The notes below the pieces were generated by a model. That model saw nothing but the letters and a program-made list of their open reading frames with translations, searched no databases and was not told where the DNA came from. Positions 1,751 through 22,542 of a stretch of DNA of 64,000 bases are shown here, in pieces. Source of the DNA: an uncultured delta proteobacterium. GTDB lineage: Bacteria; Myxococcota_A; Polyangia; Polyangiales; Polyangiaceae. Both the position numbers and the translations under genes were made by a program. The number at the start of each line of letters is the position of its first letter. Position 1 is the first letter of the stretch. Location: contig CAWKKR010000008.1 in NCBI GenBank assembly GCA_963850305.1, forward strand, positions 1,408,001-1,472,000, in the 5' to 3' direction.

Positions 1751-1966
1751 TCAGCCAGTTTCGGTCCGCGACACTCGCGTCCCCCACGATCGGTACTTGC
1801 TCGCAAGCTTGCCCGTTGCGTCGAGGATCCCGACCTTGCGGAGCATCTGCAATTTCTCTTCGCGCGACGGGCGTTCGATCGCGGCAAGAAGATCCTGTGG
1901 CGACCAGACGCCGAGAGCCGCCTGCCGGCCGACGCGCCTCTTCGTGCGTTTACTCGTCTTCGCCAT
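1751..1966 (-). CDS. small basic protein, putative antitoxin/partner of the ART-like gene
   Basis: MAKTSKRTKRR...LRKVGILDATGKLASKY, 71 aa; start overlaps the 3' end of the ART-like gene. Confidence 0.55.
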   Translation of the reverse strand: MAKTSKRTKRRVGRQAALGVWSPQDLLAAIERPSREEKLQMLRKVGILDATGKLASKYRSWGTRVSRTETG

Positions 1967-2470
1967 AGCGTCCGTCCTTCCGCACCGGCCACACTGCGAG
2001 GATGTTGCTCGGCTCGCGCACGCACAGCTGCACGTGAGCTCCCTCGAACACTCCGCTGCGCGTCCAGAGCCTCGGCATCTTCGCTTGTTGTAGCGGCACG
2101 AAGACCGCCCGGCAACTGTCGACCATGCGACCGTCCCGTGCCAAGAGCTCGTAGAGCCAGTTGAAAGCGGCGCAGTCGAGGTACTTGTGATTGTTCGCGT
2201 TCCGAGACGCACGAGGGCCCCGACGACCGCAGCTTCGTCGCCGTACCTCCGATGCGCCCACCACCACGCTTGCTGCGGCGCGAACTCCCAGAAGTAGATC
2301 CCGTGCCCGAGCCAATCGTCGTCATTCTCACTGACACCGAAGGCGTCGCCGCGGATGAGCTTCTTCGCGGTGGACCGTCGTGTACCGTGGAACGCGACGA
2401 GCGTCCGGTCGTAGTCGAACGCGGTTTGTCTCGTCGGCACCTGGGCCGACGCTTGCTTGGACCCGCTCAT
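1950..2470 (-). pseudogene. ADP-ribosyltransferase-like protein (HGT...WLGxGIYFWE family), frameshifted and probably internally deleted
   Basis: Frame 1 AFHGT...SENDDDWLGHGIYFWE...AWWWA...GALVRLG switches near 2200 to frame 2 NHKYLDCAAFN...DSCRAVF...HVQLCVREPSNI. Confidence 0.6.
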
Positions 2471-2484
2471 TGCTTCCGTCCGTC

Positions 2485-2945
2485 CTATCGGGTCACGGGG
2501 AACACGGGCCCGTCCTTCGCTGAGCCCGTGAGGGTCCACCAGAGGTGCAGGACGTTCCGCAGGTGTTCCGGCGTGACGAAGAGCTGTGGATCCATCGTCT
2601 TGTTCCTCGGAGCCCAAGCAGTTTCGAACCTTTCGTCCGGGAACAGGTCAACGTTCCACTTCCAGCGATGAAGGTCTGAGCCGACCCGTAGCCCGCCGAG
2701 GTACCGAGAGCATGTTGCGAGAACTTGTCGCTCGACGACGCCATACCTCCACGAAGGAGATCGAGGATCGTGCCGGAGCGGATGGCTGTACGCCATTTAG
2801 AGCTGCAACTCTCTGTCTGTGAGCACCTCGCGTCGTCGCCGAGGTTCTTTCGGGATGTCCAAGTCCGGCAGGCGCACCGTGACCCATCAGCGACGGCGGG
2901 ATGATTTCGGACGGGGCGGGATTCACGCTGGAGCGCAACACGGAG
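2485..2945 (-). pseudogene. tyrosine recombinase/integrase fragment
   Basis: Reads VRLPDLDIPKEPRRRREVLTDRELQL*MAYSHP...SRYLGGLRVGSDLHRWKW...PRNKT...GPVFP; in-frame TAA at 2797-2799; catalytic Arg (GLR) and Lys (KT) present, HxxR/Tyr half missing; 5' boundary approximate. Confidence 0.65.
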
Positions 2946-2949
2946 GTTG

Positions 2950-3126
2950 CGCTTGGCAGAGCTGCGGGACAGTCTCTTGCTCACGGATGGCGGCCAGCGC
3001 CACCTTGGCCTTGAATGCTGCGCTGTGACGGGTGCGGGTGCTTTTCATGATTTCTGCTCCTTTTTCGAGGAGCAGGCGCCACCTACACCACCTTAGCTGC
3101 TGGTCCGAATTTTGGGGTCCACTTCA
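2950..3126 (-). mobile_element. IS3-family remnant (left end + truncated OrfA)
   Basis: Minus strand begins TGAAGTGGACCCCAAAATTCGGACCA (IS3-type TG end); ATG at 3048 gives MKSTRTRHSAAFKAKVALAAIREQETVPQL, a typical OrfA HTH start, then truncated. Confidence 0.8.
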
Positions 3127-3267: not shown

Positions 3268-4038
3268 ATGGTCTGGAAGCTGACCCCCAAGGAGCACCGG
3301 GTGTACCCGCGGAATCCGCTGGTCGCTGTCGTTGCCGACCTCCGGTACCATCCGATCCTGAAGATCGGGAGCAAAGTGCCCGACTTTCAGGAGGCGGTCC
3401 GGAGCGTCTTCACGGAGTACCAGGAGCAGCCTCAGCAGTTCGTCACCGTGCAGCCGTTCGGTCTGATGCAGGTGTCCCAGGGCATGGCGCACATCTTTCG
3501 GAAGAGCAGCGGAACGGCGGCGCTGAGCCTGACTACCACGTCGCTCACGCTGGACTCCAGGCGGCACGCCAGCCGGGACCAGCTCATCTCGGAAGCGTGT
3601 CTCGGCTTCGACGGACTGCTTGGCCTTTACAGCCCAGTCAACGCGATCAGGTTCGGTCTCAGGTACATCAACGTGATCGACCGCCAAGAGATCAATCTTG
3701 CGCTGGGAAGGAAGGTCGCGTGGACGGACCTGATCACGCCGACCTTTTTCTCAGTGCCATCCGGTCTGGCGGACGAGCATGGGACGCTCTACGGCGTCGA
3801 GGTCAGCTCGCCCATGGACGAAGGTGGGCTCACCGTTCGGTACGGACTCATGCAAGATCCGAAGGATGGGCGAGAGAAGTTCCGCTTCGATTCGGACCGC
3901 TACGTCGATGCGCCCGTGGAGCAGAGCCAGATCCGGGCCTTGCTCGCCCGGTTCGCCGACGACATCTATTCCGTGTTCATGGAAGCAAAAGCGCCGGCCT
4001 TGGAAGAGTGGATGGAGAAGGGGGACGCGACATCATGA
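3268..4038 (+). CDS. TIGR04255-family protein
   Basis: YPRNPLVAVVADLRY...IRFGLRYINVI...FRFDSDRY matches the family pattern; 256 aa. Confidence 0.8.
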   Translation: MVWKLTPKEHRVYPRNPLVAVVADLRYHPILKIGSKVPDFQEAVRSVFTEYQEQPQQFVTVQPFGLMQVSQGMAHIFRKSSGTAALSLTTTSLTLDSRRHASRDQLISEACLGFDGLLGLYSPVNAIRFGLRYINVIDRQEINLALGRKVAWTDLITPTFFSVPSGLADEHGTLYGVEVSSPMDEGGLTVRYGLMQDPKDGREKFRFDSDRYVDAPVEQSQIRALLARFADDIYSVFMEAKAPALEEWMEKGDATS

Positions 4039-4370
4039 GCCAAGAGATCGTACCGATGTTCACGCTGGCGCTGTCGTGCAGCATCCCCTTGCAACCGACC
4101 GTCCACCTCGCCATTTCGAGCACCCGTGGCATCGAGACTCCGGCCCCTCCGGATCTCCCCCTGCCGACCTTCTCGACGCCGCCCTCTGGCAGGATGCTCG
4201 TCCACGTTGATTCACGGGAGGCGCTCGTTCGTGCATCCGCCGACCTGGTTCGAGCCCTGGCGACGGCTCTGCCCCAGAACCCGGATGATGAGCGACTTGT
4301 GGCAGCTCGTGTCGCCGAGGTCATGGGTGCCGAGAAGCCGAGGCCACTCAGACGGAGGCTCGGCGGGTAG
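4035..4370 (+). CDS. small hypothetical protein (putative antitoxin)
   Basis: ATG 4035 overlaps upstream TGA (ATGA) and its TAG overlaps the downstream GTG; 111 aa. Confidence 0.65.
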   Translation: MSQEIVPMFTLALSCSIPLQPTVHLAISSTRGIETPAPPDLPLPTFSTPPSGRMLVHVDSREALVRASADLVRALATALPQNPDDERLVAARVAEVMGAEKPRPLRRRLGG

Positions 4371-4951
4371 TGGCCGGGGAAGATGGAAGGTGGCCGCCGG
4401 TCTACGACGCCGACGACCTCGTCGCTCAGATCAAGGAGTTGACGACGCGACCAGACTTCGAGTCGGTCTTCTATGAGTGGCGGCTCGACAGGGCTGTCCA
4501 ACCCCTGACCGATGTCTGTCAGGGCGACGTCGTCAGGCTGGCGAGCGAGGTGCCCGTAATCGGGGATGACGGGCAACCCGGGACGATTTCGAACGCTACC
4601 GGCATGTGGATGGTCCTGGGAAACACGTGTGACTTCGACCGGGACTTCGATGACGGTCCATGGACGCACGTTGCACCCCTCGTGGATCTCGGCGGACCGG
4701 ACGTCGGGCAAACGCTCCGTGATGCTCTCCGGAAGTACAGCCAGTTTAGGCGCTTCTACGCTCCCCCCTGGGCGGACGGGTCAGAGCATCGGTACCACGT
4801 CGTCGAGTTGCCCCTCATGGTCTCCATCGACAAGCGGGCGTTCTCCGGCGTCGCCCAGGTTCAGGCCCGCCTGAGCCGGCCGGCGTGGATCCTGCTCAAC
4901 GCTTGCCTCGTGCGGTTCCTGGCCCGAGACGACGGTCGGTACGCTGCGTGA
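4370..4951 (+). CDS. hypothetical protein, distant PemK/MazF-like candidate toxin
   Basis: QGDVV...WMVLGNTCD...VAPLV...SIDKR order parallels MazF RGDI...VLS...VxP...TIDKxR; fold assignment is inference. Confidence 0.6.
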   Translation: MAGEDGRWPPVYDADDLVAQIKELTTRPDFESVFYEWRLDRAVQPLTDVCQGDVVRLASEVPVIGDDGQPGTISNATGMWMVLGNTCDFDRDFDDGPWTHVAPLVDLGGPDVGQTLRDALRKYSQFRRFYAPPWADGSEHRYHVVELPLMVSIDKRAFSGVAQVQARLSRPAWILLNACLVRFLARDDGRYAA

Positions 4952-4955
4952 CGAG

Positions 4956-4984
4956 GAGTTTTGCCACCAGCCCTGGCAAAACTC
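4956..4984. repeat. perfect 11-bp inverted repeat (terminator or integrase arm-type site)
   Basis: GAGTTTTGCCA-CCAGCCC-TGGCAAAACTC right after the operon stop; GCAAATCCC direct repeat follows at 4998 and 5009. Confidence 0.55.
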
Positions 4985-5085: not shown

Positions 5086-5129
5086 GTCTACGGAACCGAA
5101 AGTCGGAAGTTCGAATCTTCCCGGGCGCG
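5086..5129 (+). mobile_element. att site: 3' half of tRNA-Arg(ACG)
   Basis: GT-CTACGGA-ACCGA-AAGTC-GGAAG-TTCGAAT-CTTCC-CGGGCGC-G gives the anticodon loop, T arm and 3' acceptor; no 5' acceptor or D arm upstream. Confidence 0.85.
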
Positions 5130-5398
5130 CAAAGGAAATCACAGGGGATTTCGGCGAGCGCCGAATCGAGCGTGGCAACGAAGCGACGGCCGAGTCGAAT
5201 GAGAGGAAGCATGGGGCGGACGAGCCGCAGAGCCAACAAGACGATGCGGCTGTCGCAAGAGATGACGCAGCGGTGGGGGGCGTCGCCCGAGGCTCGCGGC
5301 ACATGCCGGAAAAGCGCAACTACGGGTCAGGCCGGGACGCACATGAGGGATTGCCCGGCGAGTCAGGGACGTGCACGATCGCCCGTTCGCGTCGTAGA

Positions 5399-6961: not shown

Positions 6962-7164
6962 GGGGATGCTGCCTACTTCACCACGCTGGACGGGGGCGGC
7001 TCAAGATCCTCACGCACACGCGCTCCGCGAGAATCATCCAACCGTCATTTCTCTCATGAGGCAGGGCGAGCAGTCCAGCTAACCGAAGATTCCACGGCGG
7101 TGTCATTCCGGGCGCGGCGGGCGATGAGATGCGTGGTGCAGGAGCTTGGTATATGCTTTTGCAT

Positions 7165-7443
7165 ATGAAGCAATTCCTCGTCGAGCTGGATGAATCTTGC
7201 GCCCGCGACCTGGAGCGCGTGGCGCCATCGAAGAGCCGCAAGCGGTCCGAGTTCGTGCGACTCGCGATCCGTCACGCCGTCGATCTCGCGCTGGATCGCG
7301 AGACGGCAGCGGCGTACGCGCGCCAGCCGATGCCGCTCGGCCCGATCGCGGCGGATCTCGTGGGGTGGGACCCGCACAACGCGCTGGCTCGCCCCATCCG
7401 GAAGCGACTGCGAGGGAAGCGCACCGCCAAGAGTGCCGCGTGA
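7165..7443 (+). CDS. ribbon-helix-helix antitoxin (MazE/VapB-like)
   Basis: MKQFLVELDE...RSEFVRLAI...AAAYARQP; stop overlaps toxin GTG. Confidence 0.75.
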   Translation: MKQFLVELDESCARDLERVAPSKSRKRSEFVRLAIRHAVDLALDRETAAAYARQPMPLGPIAADLVGWDPHNALARPIRKRLRGKRTAKSAA

Positions 7444-7805
7444 TTGCAAAGACGAGGGCGGCCGAGCCACGGCAGTTCGACGTCTTCTGGGCGTCCCTCC
7501 CGGCGCCCGTGGGGCGGCGTCCCGTGCTGCTCCTCGGTCGCACTCCCTCCTTCGAGTATCTGAGCCGCGTTCTCGTCGTGGAGGTTACCACGACGATCCG
7601 CGGCATCCCGCAAGAAGTCGTCCTCGGCAAGCGCGAGGGCCTTCCGCGCCCGTGTGTCGCGAACCTCGACGCGCTCAGAACCATGCCGCGTGAGTTTCTC
7701 GCCGATCGGCTCGGCCGGCTCCGGCACGAGCGGCAGGTCGAGGTCAAACGGGCACTCGGCCACGTCCTCCTCTGGCCGGAGCTCACGGAGCTATCACGTG
7801 AGTAG
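7440..7805 (+). CDS. mazF: PemK/MazF-family toxin
   Basis: DVFWASLPAPVGRRPVLLL...TTTIRGIP.EV...ANLD...LGRL. Confidence 0.88.
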   Translation: MIAKTRAAEPRQFDVFWASLPAPVGRRPVLLLGRTPSFEYLSRVLVVEVTTTIRGIPQEVVLGKREGLPRPCVANLDALRTMPREFLADRLGRLRHERQVEVKRALGHVLLWPELTELSRE

Positions 7806-19029: not shown

Positions 19030-20118
19030 ATGAGCAACGAGGAACCGAAATCGAGATCGGCTCTGTTGCGCGCCGAGCTCGCCGTGGCGCGCGCCCTTTT
19101 CCGGCTGCCTGCTCCGGTGCAATTCGCGCTGTCCGGCAGGCGTCCGGTGGTCGTGGACGGTCAGGCACTGCTGCCCGAGACGCAGCTTTTGCTGCGCCTC
19201 CGCGCGCTCCGGGGCGGCAAGGGGTTGAAGCGCGAGACGCCGGAGCTCGCGCGGGCCGCGATGCGACGCGAGACGGCAGCGTATCCGTGCGCGCCCGTCG
19301 CGCTCCGGAGCGTGCGTGATTTCGAGATCCCTGGGGCGGCGGGTCCGCTCCGCGTCCGTCATTACGCGCCGGACGAACTGGGCGACGTACCGCTGCTCGT
19401 GTTCTTCCACGGGGGCGCGTTCATCATCGGGGACCTCGCCACACACGACGATCCGTGTCGCCTCCTGTGCCGGCACGGCGCCGTTCACGTGCTGTCCGTC
19501 GAATATCGTCTCTCGCCCGAGCATCCATTCCCCGCTGCTCCCGACGATTGCCTCGCGGCGTTCCGCTGGGCGGCCGCGCACGCGACGGAGCTCGGCGCCA
19601 ATCCGGCGCGCGTCGGTGTCGGAGGAGACAGCGCAGGCGGGAACCTCGCCGCCGTGGTGTCGCTCGTCGCGCGCGACGACGGAGGCCGAGCTCCGTCGTT
19701 CCAGATCCTCATCTATCCCGCGACCGACAGGACGACGGTGCGGCGCTCCGTCGTCGCGTTCGGCGAGGGGTTCTTGCTCACGCGAGAGGACATGCAATGG
19801 TCGACGCGTGCGTACCTAGGTGATCGCGTCGAGCTCGGCGCGGACCCTCGGGTCTCGCCGCTCGTCGCGAAAGATCACACGGGACTCGCGCCCGCGCTCG
19901 TCGCCACGGCTGGATTCGACCCGCTCCGCGACGAGGGCGACGCCTACGCGAAGGTTCTCGAAGATGCGGGTAACCATGTCGTCTGGTTGCCGATCCCCGG
20001 CGTCCTTCACGGCTTCCTGCACATGGCGAGCGTGAGCCCCGCACCGCTCGACGCGGTCCTGCGGATTGCATGCGCGACGCGCGAGCTGAGCCGGCGCACG
20101 CGGCGCGGCATCGCCTGA
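19030..20118 (+). CDS. HSL-family esterase/lipase
   Basis: FHGGAF, GDSAGGNL, DPLRDEG, HGF. Confidence 0.93.
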   Translation: MSNEEPKSRSALLRAELAVARALFRLPAPVQFALSGRRPVVVDGQALLPETQLLLRLRALRGGKGLKRETPELARAAMRRETAAYPCAPVALRSVRDFEIPGAAGPLRVRHYAPDELGDVPLLVFFHGGAFIIGDLATHDDPCRLLCRHGAVHVLSVEYRLSPEHPFPAAPDDCLAAFRWAAAHATELGANPARVGVGGDSAGGNLAAVVSLVARDDGGRAPSFQILIYPATDRTTVRRSVVAFGEGFLLTREDMQWSTRAYLGDRVELGADPRVSPLVAKDHTGLAPALVATAGFDPLRDEGDAYAKVLEDAGNHVVWLPIPGVLHGFLHMASVSPAPLDAVLRIACATRELSRRTRRGIA

Positions 20119-20334
20119 ACGCCGGATCTCGGACTTGGCCCGGAACTCCGGAGTGTTCCCACCCGAAATCTGTAACGCGACCGGAAGACGGCGCGCTCGT
20201 AGCTCGGGTCGCGAGGGTCGTGAGCTCCAATCGATAAACTGCGACGTGTGGAAGGTAGCGACGGTGTGTGCCGTTCACGTACGTGGGCTGAGTAGGGCGG
20301 AGCTCGATTGGAGCTCGACCGAAAGGAACTCACC

Positions 20335-21516
20335 ATGTTTCGTTCTTGGGTCACTCTGGCGGGTATCTGTGCGGCAACCTGTGGGGCGGTCGCGTGCGGG
20401 TCGAGCGCATCGCCTCCAGGCGGGCCAGGCGACTCCGGGGGTGTATACGGCTTCGGAAACTACGGAAGCGGCGGCATCGGTTCGAGCTCGGGCGGCTTCG
20501 CTACCAACGAGTCAGGCGGGGTGCCCTTCGGCTCCGGCGGCGAGAGCATGGGCAACGGTGGCTACGATACGTCGATCGGCGACGGTTCGGGCGGCGCTTT
20601 CGGGGGTGGTTCGGGCGGTTCGAATGACGGCAATGGCGGCTTCTTCTCGAGCGGCGGCTCACCGAGTTCCGGTGGATTTCCCGCGGCTACCGGCGGGATG
20701 TCGGGCGCTGGCGGCGCGACCACCACCCCCGGCACGAATCCCCCTGCAGACAAGCTGCCGACCGTCACCGGGACCTGCCCGTCACTTACCACCGGGCCCA
20801 TCACCGTGAATGGCACGGCCGGAAACATCTGGGTCGGAACGAAGCCGGGCCCCATGTACATCTACTGGCACGCGACGGGCACGACCTACACGGAGATCGA
20901 CCAGGGCATGCCCGGAGCGACCAGCGGCGTTGCCACGAACGGCGGCATCGCGCTGTCCTTCAACACGACGAACAACCAGGGGACCGATACGGGCGACGCG
21001 GTGTGGTTCACGGGAGACTTCGATTCCTCGGATCAAGTCCTCGCGTGCGGCATACAGAAAGGTCTCGTCGATACGAGCCGCATTTACACCGCGGGCTACA
21101 GCGCCGGCGGTCTCCAGGCGTGCGCCATGGTCGCAACGCGCGGCAAGTACCTGGCCGCGGCGATCTGCTACTCGGGCGGCGCGGCCATCATCTCGGGCAC
21201 GCCGCAGGACACGAGCAACCTTCCTGCGACTCTCCTCCTCCACGGCGCGGCCGGCAAAGATACGTTCATCCTCGACTTCAACGCGCAGAGCCAGACGTGG
21301 GCCAACCAATACACGACCGCCGGCGGCTTCGCGATCAACTGCGACGACGGGGGAGATCACATAACGTCCGCATTCACCCGAATGGGGTTCGGCGGTCGTG
21401 CGATGCCGTTCCTGCAAGCACACACGTGGCATCAGACACCGGAGCCCTATGACCCACTGCCATCCGACTGGCCCAGCTACTGCACGATCTGGACGCCGAA
21501 CCACGCGGCCATCTGA
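20335..21516 (+). CDS. lipoprotein with Gly-rich linker and esterase/PHB-depolymerase-like domain
   Basis: AVAC lipobox, long G/S tract, RIYTAGYSAGG, D and GGDH residues. Confidence 0.75.
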   Translation: MFRSWVTLAGICAATCGAVACGSSASPPGGPGDSGGVYGFGNYGSGGIGSSSGGFATNESGGVPFGSGGESMGNGGYDTSIGDGSGGAFGGGSGGSNDGNGGFFSSGGSPSSGGFPAATGGMSGAGGATTTPGTNPPADKLPTVTGTCPSLTTGPITVNGTAGNIWVGTKPGPMYIYWHATGTTYTEIDQGMPGATSGVATNGGIALSFNTTNNQGTDTGDAVWFTGDFDSSDQVLACGIQKGLVDTSRIYTAGYSAGGLQACAMVATRGKYLAAAICYSGGAAIISGTPQDTSNLPATLLLHGAAGKDTFILDFNAQSQTWANQYTTAGGFAINCDDGGDHITSAFTRMGFGGRAMPFLQAHTWHQTPEPYDPLPSDWPSYCTIWTPNHAAI

Positions 21517-21528
21517 AAAACACCCGAC

Positions 21529-22542
21529 TCAACCCGCCGCTGTTGCCCTCAGCTTCATCCGGTGTTCGAGCGGCGACGATCCCGTCCAGCGGCGGAACGC
21601 CGTCCCGAACGCGCTCTGAGTGGAGAAGCCGAGCAGGAACGCAATCTCTCCGATCGCGACGCGGGGATTCGCGACGTACCCAAGCGCGAGCCCGCGACGA
21701 AGCTCGTCCACGATGGCCCGAAATGTCGCATTTTCTTCGCCGAGGCGGCGCCTCAATGTCGCCGTGCTCATATGAAGCTCCGCCGCCGTCTCCTCGATGC
21801 CGATGTCTTCGCGCCCGATCCTTGCCTCGAGCAGGCGGCGCACTTTTGCCTCGACCGTATCGGCGCGATCGAGCTGCCGGAGCAGCTGGTCCGAGCGCAA
21901 ATCGAACACCGAAAAGACGTGCGGATTGGCGGTAGCGACGGGCAGATCGAGGAGTGAGCGCCTGATCACGACGGCGTTGTGCGGGCGCCCGTAACGAACC
22001 GGAGCGCGGAGCAAGCGCGCGTACTCCGCGGCGTCGGTCGGCACCTCGTGCCGCAAGTGCACTTCCAGCGGGGGTTCTTGCCTGCCGAGGCGGCTCGACA
22101 CGAAGAAAAGGATCGCCGCCGCTTGAAAGTCGTTCGTCGCAGGGAGAAGCGTCGGGATGGCGTTCCGGAGTTCGATGGCGACGCGGTCCCCTTCTTCCAC
22201 GAGCACGACATCGAGGACATCGTCCTGGAGGTGCGTGTAGCGTGCCATGCACGCGAGAGCACGCCGCAGGTCCGGGCACGCGCGAGCGGCGTGATCCATC
22301 ATACCGAAATCAGCTGACTCGCAATGCTCCGCGGCGTGCAGTCCGAGCGCGACGTCGCGGGTCGTCTCGACGGCGAGCGAGATCATTTCACCGAGTAGCT
22401 GGCGTGGGATCCGCGCGTCGGGATCGGCGAGCAAGCATGGATCGATTCCCGCGTCCGACAGAACCTCGAGCTGACGCGCAAAGTCCGGGGTCGTTCTCAT
22501 GAACGGCCACACCATCCGGACGGAGACGGTCCCTTTGGTCAT
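21529..22542 (-). CDS. AraC-family regulator (OruR/ArgR type)
   Basis: DPDARIP N-domain; C-terminal EIAFLLGFSTQSAFGTAFRRWTG. Confidence 0.93.
   Translation of the reverse strand: MTKGTVSVRMVWPFMRTTPDFARQLEVLSDAGIDPCLLADPDARIPRQLLGEMISLAVETTRDVALGLHAAEHCESADFGMMDHAARACPDLRRALACMARYTHLQDDVLDVVLVEEGDRVAIELRNAIPTLLPATNDFQAAAILFFVSSRLGRQEPPLEVHLRHEVPTDAAEYARLLRAPVRYGRPHNAVVIRRSLLDLPVATANPHVFSVFDLRSDQLLRQLDRADTVEAKVRRLLEARIGREDIGIEETAAELHMSTATLRRRLGEENATFRAIVDELRRGLALGYVANPRVAIGEIAFLLGFSTQSAFGTAFRRWTGSSPLEHRMKLRATAAG

Follow-up and report, generated by a model that had tools for sequence, protein, structure and literature searches.

The window, a stretch of 64,000 nucleotides, holds a three-gene operon that belongs to a real, conserved, and modular system, which is likely a form of toxin-antitoxin control by a third partner with a probable anti-phage role. 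The trio occurs across several phyla, and at other loci genes of the TIGR04255 family lead similar trios with other likely toxins, which taken together probably represent an undescribed anti-virus toxin-antitoxin platform with a putative role in defense. The explanation that we favor, with moderate confidence, is that the trio would be a three-part toxin-antitoxin module for anti-phage defense, in which the protein encoded by the first gene (ORF1) would read a leader on the product of the second (ORF2).

A three-gene operon at the end of a tRNA-Arg island

The operon is real and intact (Table 1). As the initial annotation had claimed, its three frames are open and tightly coupled, by an ATGA junction between ORF1 and ORF2 (4-bp overlap) and a TAGTG junction between ORF2 and ORF3 (1-bp overlap). 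The GC content at third codon positions is 0.83 in ORF1, 0.75 in ORF2, and 0.80 in ORF3. An overlapping shadow frame of 370 aa was dismissed as a gene, since its value is only 0.52.

Table 1. Features of the operon and of the adjoining end of the island, in window positions.
Feature	Position	Strand	Remarks
ORF1, TIGR04255 family, 256 aa	3268..4038	+	Open frame; NCBIfam 86 bits; putative controller/sensor
ORF2, 111 aa	4035..4370	+	Open frame; putative antitoxin
ORF3, 193 aa	4370..4951	+	Open frame; predicted MazF/CcdB/PemK fold, putative toxin
11-bp inverted repeat (hairpin)	4956..4984	.	Probable piece of the right end of the element, perhaps an arm site for an integrase
attR, direct repeat of the 3' part of tRNA-Arg(ACG)	5086..5156	+	71 bp, 70/71 identical; other copy 8,614 bp upstream, outside the window
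Transposase remnant with terminal repeat, frameshifted	2799..3126	-	Adjoins the operon on its upstream side; left limit approximate
Presumed ADP-ribosyltransferase-like gene, frameshifted	1950..2470	-	Same island; coordinates approximate; no Pfam match

An 8.6-kb island carries the operon at its right end. The gene of tRNA-Arg(ACG) is found on the genome contig ~3.5 kb before the start of the window, and the repeat of its 3' end, the att core, starts 135 bp past the stop of ORF3, which makes the operon the last cargo of this island and confirms the earlier claim that it adjoins an att site. The same annotation had the operon end in an 11-bp hairpin. The hairpin is present, but it is better explained as part of the end of the element: inspection of its sequence revealed no U-tract, and in the congener G302 this end of the element recurs behind a different two-gene cargo, again with an inverted repeat that resembles the hairpin. 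On these two grounds, a role as operon terminator was rejected as the less probable one. The cargo of G302 consists of a 97-aa gene and a 267-aa HTH protein (L089, 339-1419), and since it differs from the one studied here, the site looks like a cargo hotspot.

The neighboring genes of the element are broken, again in line with what had been noted, as both the transposase piece and the ADP-ribosyltransferase (ART)-like gene are frameshifted. The former, which we take from its motifs to be IS3-like, has two copies of part of its sequence elsewhere in the genome (98-99% identical). The fold of the latter was likewise presumed from a motif; a short partner ORF precedes this gene, and the two are possibly a decayed toxin-antitoxin pair. 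Besides these elements and the operon, the island encodes a HAD hydrolase, YccF, and, just inside its tRNA-Arg end and upstream of the window (L098, 4755-6403), an IrrE/M78 metallopeptidase (identified with Pfam) coupled to a 209-aa gene that has no Pfam match and that we presume, from a motif, to be PIN-like. This pair is a candidate defense or toxin-antitoxin pair. A search of Rfam gave 0 matches. Outside the island, the window contains an ordinary two-gene pair (7129-7805), in which a 104-aa gene is followed by a PemK/MazF toxin (PF02452, E 1.4e-12).

The third protein has a predicted MazF/CcdB fold

The AlphaFold2 model of ORF3, built from 99 sequences, has a pLDDT of 88, and its predicted MazF/CcdB fold is well supported. 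Foldseek matched it to MazF proteins (best E 1.2e-4), and VIA to the MazF of S. aureus (Z 10.3, rmsd 3.6, 113 aligned), followed by CcdB (9.7), Kid (8.0), and ToxN types (4.5-7.2). The top 15 rows of VIA are all toxins of the MazF, CcdB, Kid, or ToxN types, and the next unrelated row has a Z of 3.8. The initial description of ORF3 as MazF-like thus holds at the level of the fold, which in the model occupies residues 47-188, after an N-terminal extension of 46 residues. No Pfam or NCBIfam family matched ORF3, Pfam PemK matched neither ORF3 nor 98 relatives, and nothing significant was found when ORF3 or its profiles were compared with PDB sequences or ORF3 with the window's own PemK. The ESM Atlas places it in unnamed clusters only, and we found no relatives in viral contigs (searched with one pattern) nor in plasmids.

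Across 144 sequences, the conserved positions of ORF3 are Q51-G52-D53, W80, N85, C87, D88, R91, P103, and a C-terminal cluster (W173/R182/R186/D188/R190), of which G52, C87, W173, R182, and R190 are invariant. The family has an invariant N-x-C-D-x-x-R motif. Positions ~78-79 and 104-105, where we would place the catalytic Arg and Thr of MazF from motif spacing, are variable in the same sequences, and the usual catalytic residues of MazF appear to be absent; an RNase activity is less well supported than the fold. A longer MazF-like family of ~270 aa, encoded behind other TIGR04255 genes, has an N-terminal domain that is homologous to ORF3 and its relatives (HHalign 96%, E 1.7e-9). Two loci (L047 and L052) have a frameshift in ORF3 but intact frames for ORF1 and ORF2, a pattern that would fit a cost imposed by the third gene.

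Conservation of the trio and exchange of its parts

A genome-wide scan gave 55 loci, 52 of them with a match to the ORF3 profile. A TIGR04255 gene was called ~1.1 kb upstream in 47 of the 52 (40 with an iterated profile started from ORF1 and 7 with NCBIfam), and a middle gene with the C-terminal pattern of ORF2 in 50, so that the three-gene order described in the initial annotation holds far beyond the window. The first and middle genes overlap at 33 of 48 junctions, a count favored by the choice of starts near the upstream stop. The exceptions are few: L025 has ORF2 and ORF3 without a first gene, neither first nor middle gene was found in L049, L051 is at a contig end, the first gene of L040 belongs to a different family of ~210 aa, and that of L019 is unrelated. 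The latter (463-867) encodes a 134-aa protein with no match in Pfam or NCBIfam and shows the same 4-bp coupling; it is a candidate third family of controllers. The hosts belong to Myxococcota, Pseudomonadota, Thermodesulfobacteriota, Campylobacterota, Fibrobacterota, and Lentisphaerota. The distribution is patchy: among 301 genomes of the source genome's family, 9 encode a full-length ORF3, all with the first gene and ORF2, and the trio is found in one of six congeners. When we examined 14 weaker matches of ORF3, 12 turned out to be the longer family behind TIGR04255.

ORF2 has no match in Pfam or NCBIfam, and we detected no DNA-binding domain in it. The alignment of its relatives shows a variable N-terminal leader, rich in Ser, Thr, and Pro, and a conserved, helical C-terminal part that ends in a basic tail. 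The fraction of P/G/S/T is 0.35 in the variable part vs. 0.20 in the conserved one, and Ser+Thr is higher in the N- than in the C-part of 44 of 49 ORF2s. The proteins encoded by the first genes of the trios form three deep clades (30, 6, and 7 rows in a quick tree) that are 13-16% identical across clades, and the ORF3 proteins of the same pairs are 34-40% identical. The support of the deep branches of the ORF3 tree, made with FastTree only, is weak, and we therefore claim no order of swaps. An ETxLP-type motif, defined after the data were viewed, is present in the N-half of 21 of the 32 ORF2s with a clade A ORF1 and in none of the 17 others. Within clade A only, the N-half of ORF2 varies mainly with ORF1 (partial r 0.54, vs. 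0.19 with ORF3) and its C-half more with ORF3 (0.35, vs. 0.23 with ORF1); when all 43 loci are taken, the N-half follows neither of the two more than the other (0.23 with ORF1 vs. 0.21 with ORF3). These correlations are confounded by physical linkage and by the non-independence of pairs, and linkage alone could yield such a gradient.

TIGR04255 was found in 46 of the 301 sampled genomes of the phylum. Among the best 29 of its loci from other genomes of the phylum, a third gene follows in 28, and this gene changes, in agreement with the swapping of toxins that the initial annotation had suggested looking for: 16 are MazF-like, 2 PIN (one above cut-off), 1 HNH, and the rest ART-like, papain-like, or of no recognized kind, where the ART-like and papain-like labels were assigned from motifs. 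The papain-like genes (L083, L084, and L120) are found behind both families of first genes, two that were scanned have no Pfam match, and they encode a possible protease-type toxin. We read out the middle genes at 25 loci and measured their composition in 23. Their C-termini are unrelated, being HTH, HEAT-repeat, or helical, with Pfam matches that pass the cut-off in 3 and fall below it in 5. In 20 of the 23, the N-terminal 60 residues contain more Ser+Thr than the C-terminal 60 (0.20 vs. 0.10), with P/G/S/T at 0.33 vs. 0.22. The first gene is thus constant and the leader of low complexity, whereas the C-terminal domain of the middle protein varies along with the third gene. Such an architecture would be expected if the leader were read by ORF1 and the toxin were held by the C-terminal domain. 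Trios of TIGR04255, an HTH protein, and the longer MazF-like protein are also found on a plasmid record of Acinetobacter baumannii and on a cyanobacterial plasmid (L086, 5977-8153, and L087, 5971-8280), in the latter case adjoining an integrase.

How the first protein may control the module

Built on predicted folds, the mechanism that we infer, from binding and toxicity to trigger and protection, would run as follows. ORF3 would be the toxin, neutralized by the conserved C-terminal half of ORF2. The TIGR04255 protein would recognize the Ser/Thr/Pro-rich leader at the N-terminus of ORF2 and keep the antitoxin functional. As in the toxin-antitoxin-chaperone (TAC) systems, a phage product or an infection signal might then divert ORF1, which would leave the antitoxin without function and free the toxin to arrest the infected cell. 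In this view, TIGR04255 together with the leader would be a transferable unit of control, attached to many different toxin-antitoxin pairs. Some observations go against this explanation: a locus without the first gene (L025), another with an unrelated one (L019), and the fact that the best fold match of ORF1 is an enzyme domain, with conserved Arg and Asp, and not a known chaperone. A joint prediction of a complex of ORF1, two ORF3, and ORF2 gave no answer either way (0.80, vs. 0.81 in the control with ORF1 replaced and 0.00 in the two controls with ORF2 replaced).

ORF1 passes the curated cut-off of TIGR04255 with ease (86.2 bits vs. 30, over residues 13-245; NCBIfam). It has no Pfam match at E<=1, and in the ESM Atlas its clusters are named TIGR04255 or unnamed. 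Its AlphaFold2 model, a predicted alpha/beta sheet fold with a pLDDT of 93, is confident, yet it is without a clear structural match. A wide fold search of the PDB returned S-adenosylmethionine decarboxylase (AdoMetDC; Z 7.6), taurocyamine kinase (7.4, 192 aligned), and McsB (7.2). Foldseek gave weak TBP-like matches, and a viral fold search one unnamed match (TM 0.47) besides TBP-like ones. We could detect no internal duplication. SecB is absent among the matches listed in three PDB fold searches, which, together with the lack of a Pfam match, is consistent with the non-SecB first gene proposed in the initial annotation.

The best fold match raises an enzymatic or nucleotide-binding alternative, in which ORF1 would be a stripped-down protein of the guanido-kinase/glutamine-synthetase fold with affinity for ATP or some other nucleotide; it would act either by modifying the Ser/Thr-rich leader or by sensing the nucleotide state, so that control would be enzymatic or ligand-based instead of relying on chaperone addiction. 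In the repeat search with VIA, arginine kinases come at the top, with a catalytic domain at Z 8.5 (rmsd 3.8, 176 aligned), colinear over nearly the whole protein (residues 9-247 of the model vs. 109-357 of the chain), and McsB follows at 7.2 with 189 aligned. A Z of 8.5 is, however, in the range that VIA calls common, and within 1 of the unrelated AdoMetDC (7.8), which is in effect tied with the arginine kinases. The conserved residues of ORF1 are R26, R128, G130, R132, Y133, D208, D210, and F237. By eye, R26 (29 of 40), R132 (39 of 40), R191 (18 of 40), and D208 (38 of 40) lie on the strands in the order of the nucleotide-binding residues of the kinases, whose strands carry the ATP-binding Arg and Asp. 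Against this, the NEED motif and the reactive, catalytic Cys of guanido kinases have no counterpart among the conserved columns, PF00217 does not match, and the kinase likeness comes from a match of folds and not from a structural alignment at the level of residues. The comparison of the ORF1 profile with three guanido kinases gave a probability of 0.2%, with the shallow target profiles (1-7 rows) used throughout the profile-profile tests of TIGR04255. The Ser/Thr-rich leaders would suit a modifying enzyme as substrates, but we regard this alternative as doubtful. Our best reading is that ORF1 would be a non-catalytic, leader-binding protein; the chief competing view is that it binds nucleotides or modifies its partner.

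A more far-reaching proposal would make TIGR04255 the minimal, nucleotide-binding controller, with a guanido-kinase fold, of a widespread and undescribed class of three-gene immune systems. It would read or modify a Ser/Thr-rich leader on unrelated antitoxins and place MazF-like, PIN, HNH, ART-like, and papain-like toxins under a single phage-sensing switch, while the Cys-Asp family of MazF fold to which ORF3 belongs would bring a new toxin chemistry. We consider this unlikely as it stands.

Genomic context and the case for defense

To assess the genes around the cassettes, we scanned with PADLOC (E<=1e-25) the 229 proteins encoded by as many as three called genes to either side of the 52 cassettes and, as controls, 103 proteins from 20 regions of only four genomes. 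Generic matches (kinases, sigma-54 ATPases, GlgB, and partial mad3) were dropped after viewing, which removed 5 test and 8 control proteins. After this filter, 14 of the 52 loci (25 proteins) have a defense neighbor vs. 0 of the 20 controls (Fisher p 0.008); unfiltered, the counts are 18 of 52 vs. 6 of 20, and show no difference. The location near defense genes expected from the initial annotation is hence seen in the filtered counts but not in the unfiltered ones. The filtered neighbors include BREX, CBASS, Azaca, IetA, type I and type IV restriction, PD-Lambda-2, and four PDC candidates. PADLOC itself gives no significant match for ORF1, ORF2, or ORF3 of the window, and none of its models matches any of 55 relatives of ORF1.

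The trio could instead be an addiction or stress module that stabilizes mobile islands and has no role against phages. It is carried by a tRNA-integrated island in which a loose motif scan found no integrase-like ORF, its distribution in the family and among congeners is patchy, TIGR04255 trios occur on plasmids, one of them beside an integrase, and the unfiltered PADLOC counts show no enrichment. Yet genes of BREX, CBASS, Azaca, type I and IV restriction, and PD-Lambda-2 are among the neighbors, addiction leaves the conserved third partner unexplained, and DS-42, a system of similar layout, gave replicated, if weak, defense in the published tables (PMC13092281). We find a purely addictive role improbable. 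The least probable of the readings that we weighed has ORF1 as a nucleic-acid sensor with a TBP-like saddle, or as a direct immunity protein to the toxin, and ORF2 as only an adaptor: TBP (Z 6.7-7.1), a rolling-circle Rep (6.5), and a type VI secretion effector-immunity entry (5.0) are among the fold matches, and the conserved arginines would suit the binding of nucleic acids, but the TBP matches have rmsd of 5.5-6.2, a single family would need to give immunity to PIN, HNH, MazF-like, and other unrelated folds, and the part that changes with the third gene is the C-terminus of the middle protein.

Comparison with known systems

By analogy, the trio likely works like a TAC system. By the defining features of TAC (bioRxiv 10.1101/2024.02.24.581848), HigBAC and CmdTAC resemble it in that they, too, have three genes, one of which encodes a toxin and another a protein of antitoxin size, whose variable extension of low complexity is conserved in subgroups matching the partner, and in that different toxins stand under one kind of third partner. 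In contrast, TAC systems use a SecB-like chaperone and a disordered C-terminal ChAD with key aromatic residues (same source). In the trio, the extension is N-terminal and Ser/Thr/Pro-rich, the C-terminal part of ORF2 is conserved, and the partner, encoded first, is a 256-aa TIGR04255 protein for which no SecB match was found. We do not file the trio as a TAC system because of the N-terminal extension and the lack of any SecB likeness found. If the proposed control is true, a curated family that so far lacks an assigned role, present in 46 of the 301 sampled genomes of the phylum, would gain one, and control of toxin-antitoxin pairs by a third partner would have arisen a second time, apparently without SecB and with a leader on the other terminus of the antitoxin.

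The likeness to MazEF, PemIK, and CcdAB lies in the predicted fold of ORF3, with the matches to MazF, CcdB, and Kid given above, and in the small gene coupled upstream. The differences are that ORF3 has no Pfam PemK match and carries the N-terminal extension, the N-x-C-D-x-x-R motif, and the C-terminal R/D cluster, that ORF2 has a basic tail and no detected DNA-binding domain, and that a third gene accompanies the pair in nearly all loci. GajC of type II Gabija is a case of a MazF-like fold that serves defense outside a MazEF pair, and in ietHAS a third component (ietH) helps the antitoxin to function, but the partners in these systems are helicases, and TIGR04255 is not named in the main text of the study (PMC13069673). 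In the openly accessible literature, we found no paper under the name TIGR04255 or its aliases, and no description of the three-gene system. Table S4 of DefensePredictor lists 8 TIGR04255 proteins among the predicted novel defense genes (PMC13092281).

The closest layout is that of DS-42 (PRO1), a trio of a 238-aa protein of unknown function, a 190-aa middle gene, and an MBL-fold hydrolase, which the tables of the same study mark as validated and replicated. Its defense is weak, with a -log EOP of 1.1 on Bas1 in one row of Table S7, and the DefensePredictor text searched contains no description of its mechanism (PMC13092281). Both systems have an uncharacterized first gene of ~240 aa, a middle gene with a low-complexity N-terminus, and then an effector. 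The trio is not DS-42, since the effector differs (an MBL-fold hydrolase there, the predicted MazF fold of ORF3 here); the C-terminus of the middle protein is also unrelated.

The two kinds of trio nonetheless meet in L040, where a first gene of a DS-42-like family stands for TIGR04255 before ORF2 and ORF3. Its profile weakly finds the first genes of DS-42-like trios, one of them in the source genome (L123; E 0.002), and also trios with HEAT/ART-like and papain-like pairs such as those behind TIGR04255. Since both families of first genes precede the same pairs, they are interchangeable in position. The comparison of the DS-42A-like family with TIGR04255 gave only 0.8-1.2% in HHalign, with shallow target profiles. 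The swapped modules provide a ready test set for crossing toxins, first genes, and leaders with one another. Several unannotated families, among them an unrecognized one of MazF fold with an invariant Cys-Asp, are predicted from these modules to act as toxins, and a mechanism for DS-42 is suggested as well. The DS-42-like locus of the source genome (G000:C4, ~19934-21754, minus strand) is a second trio of this organism, similar to DS-42 in all three genes by eye: it has a first gene of no recognized family, a middle gene with a proline-rich leader, and an MBL-fold hydrolase.
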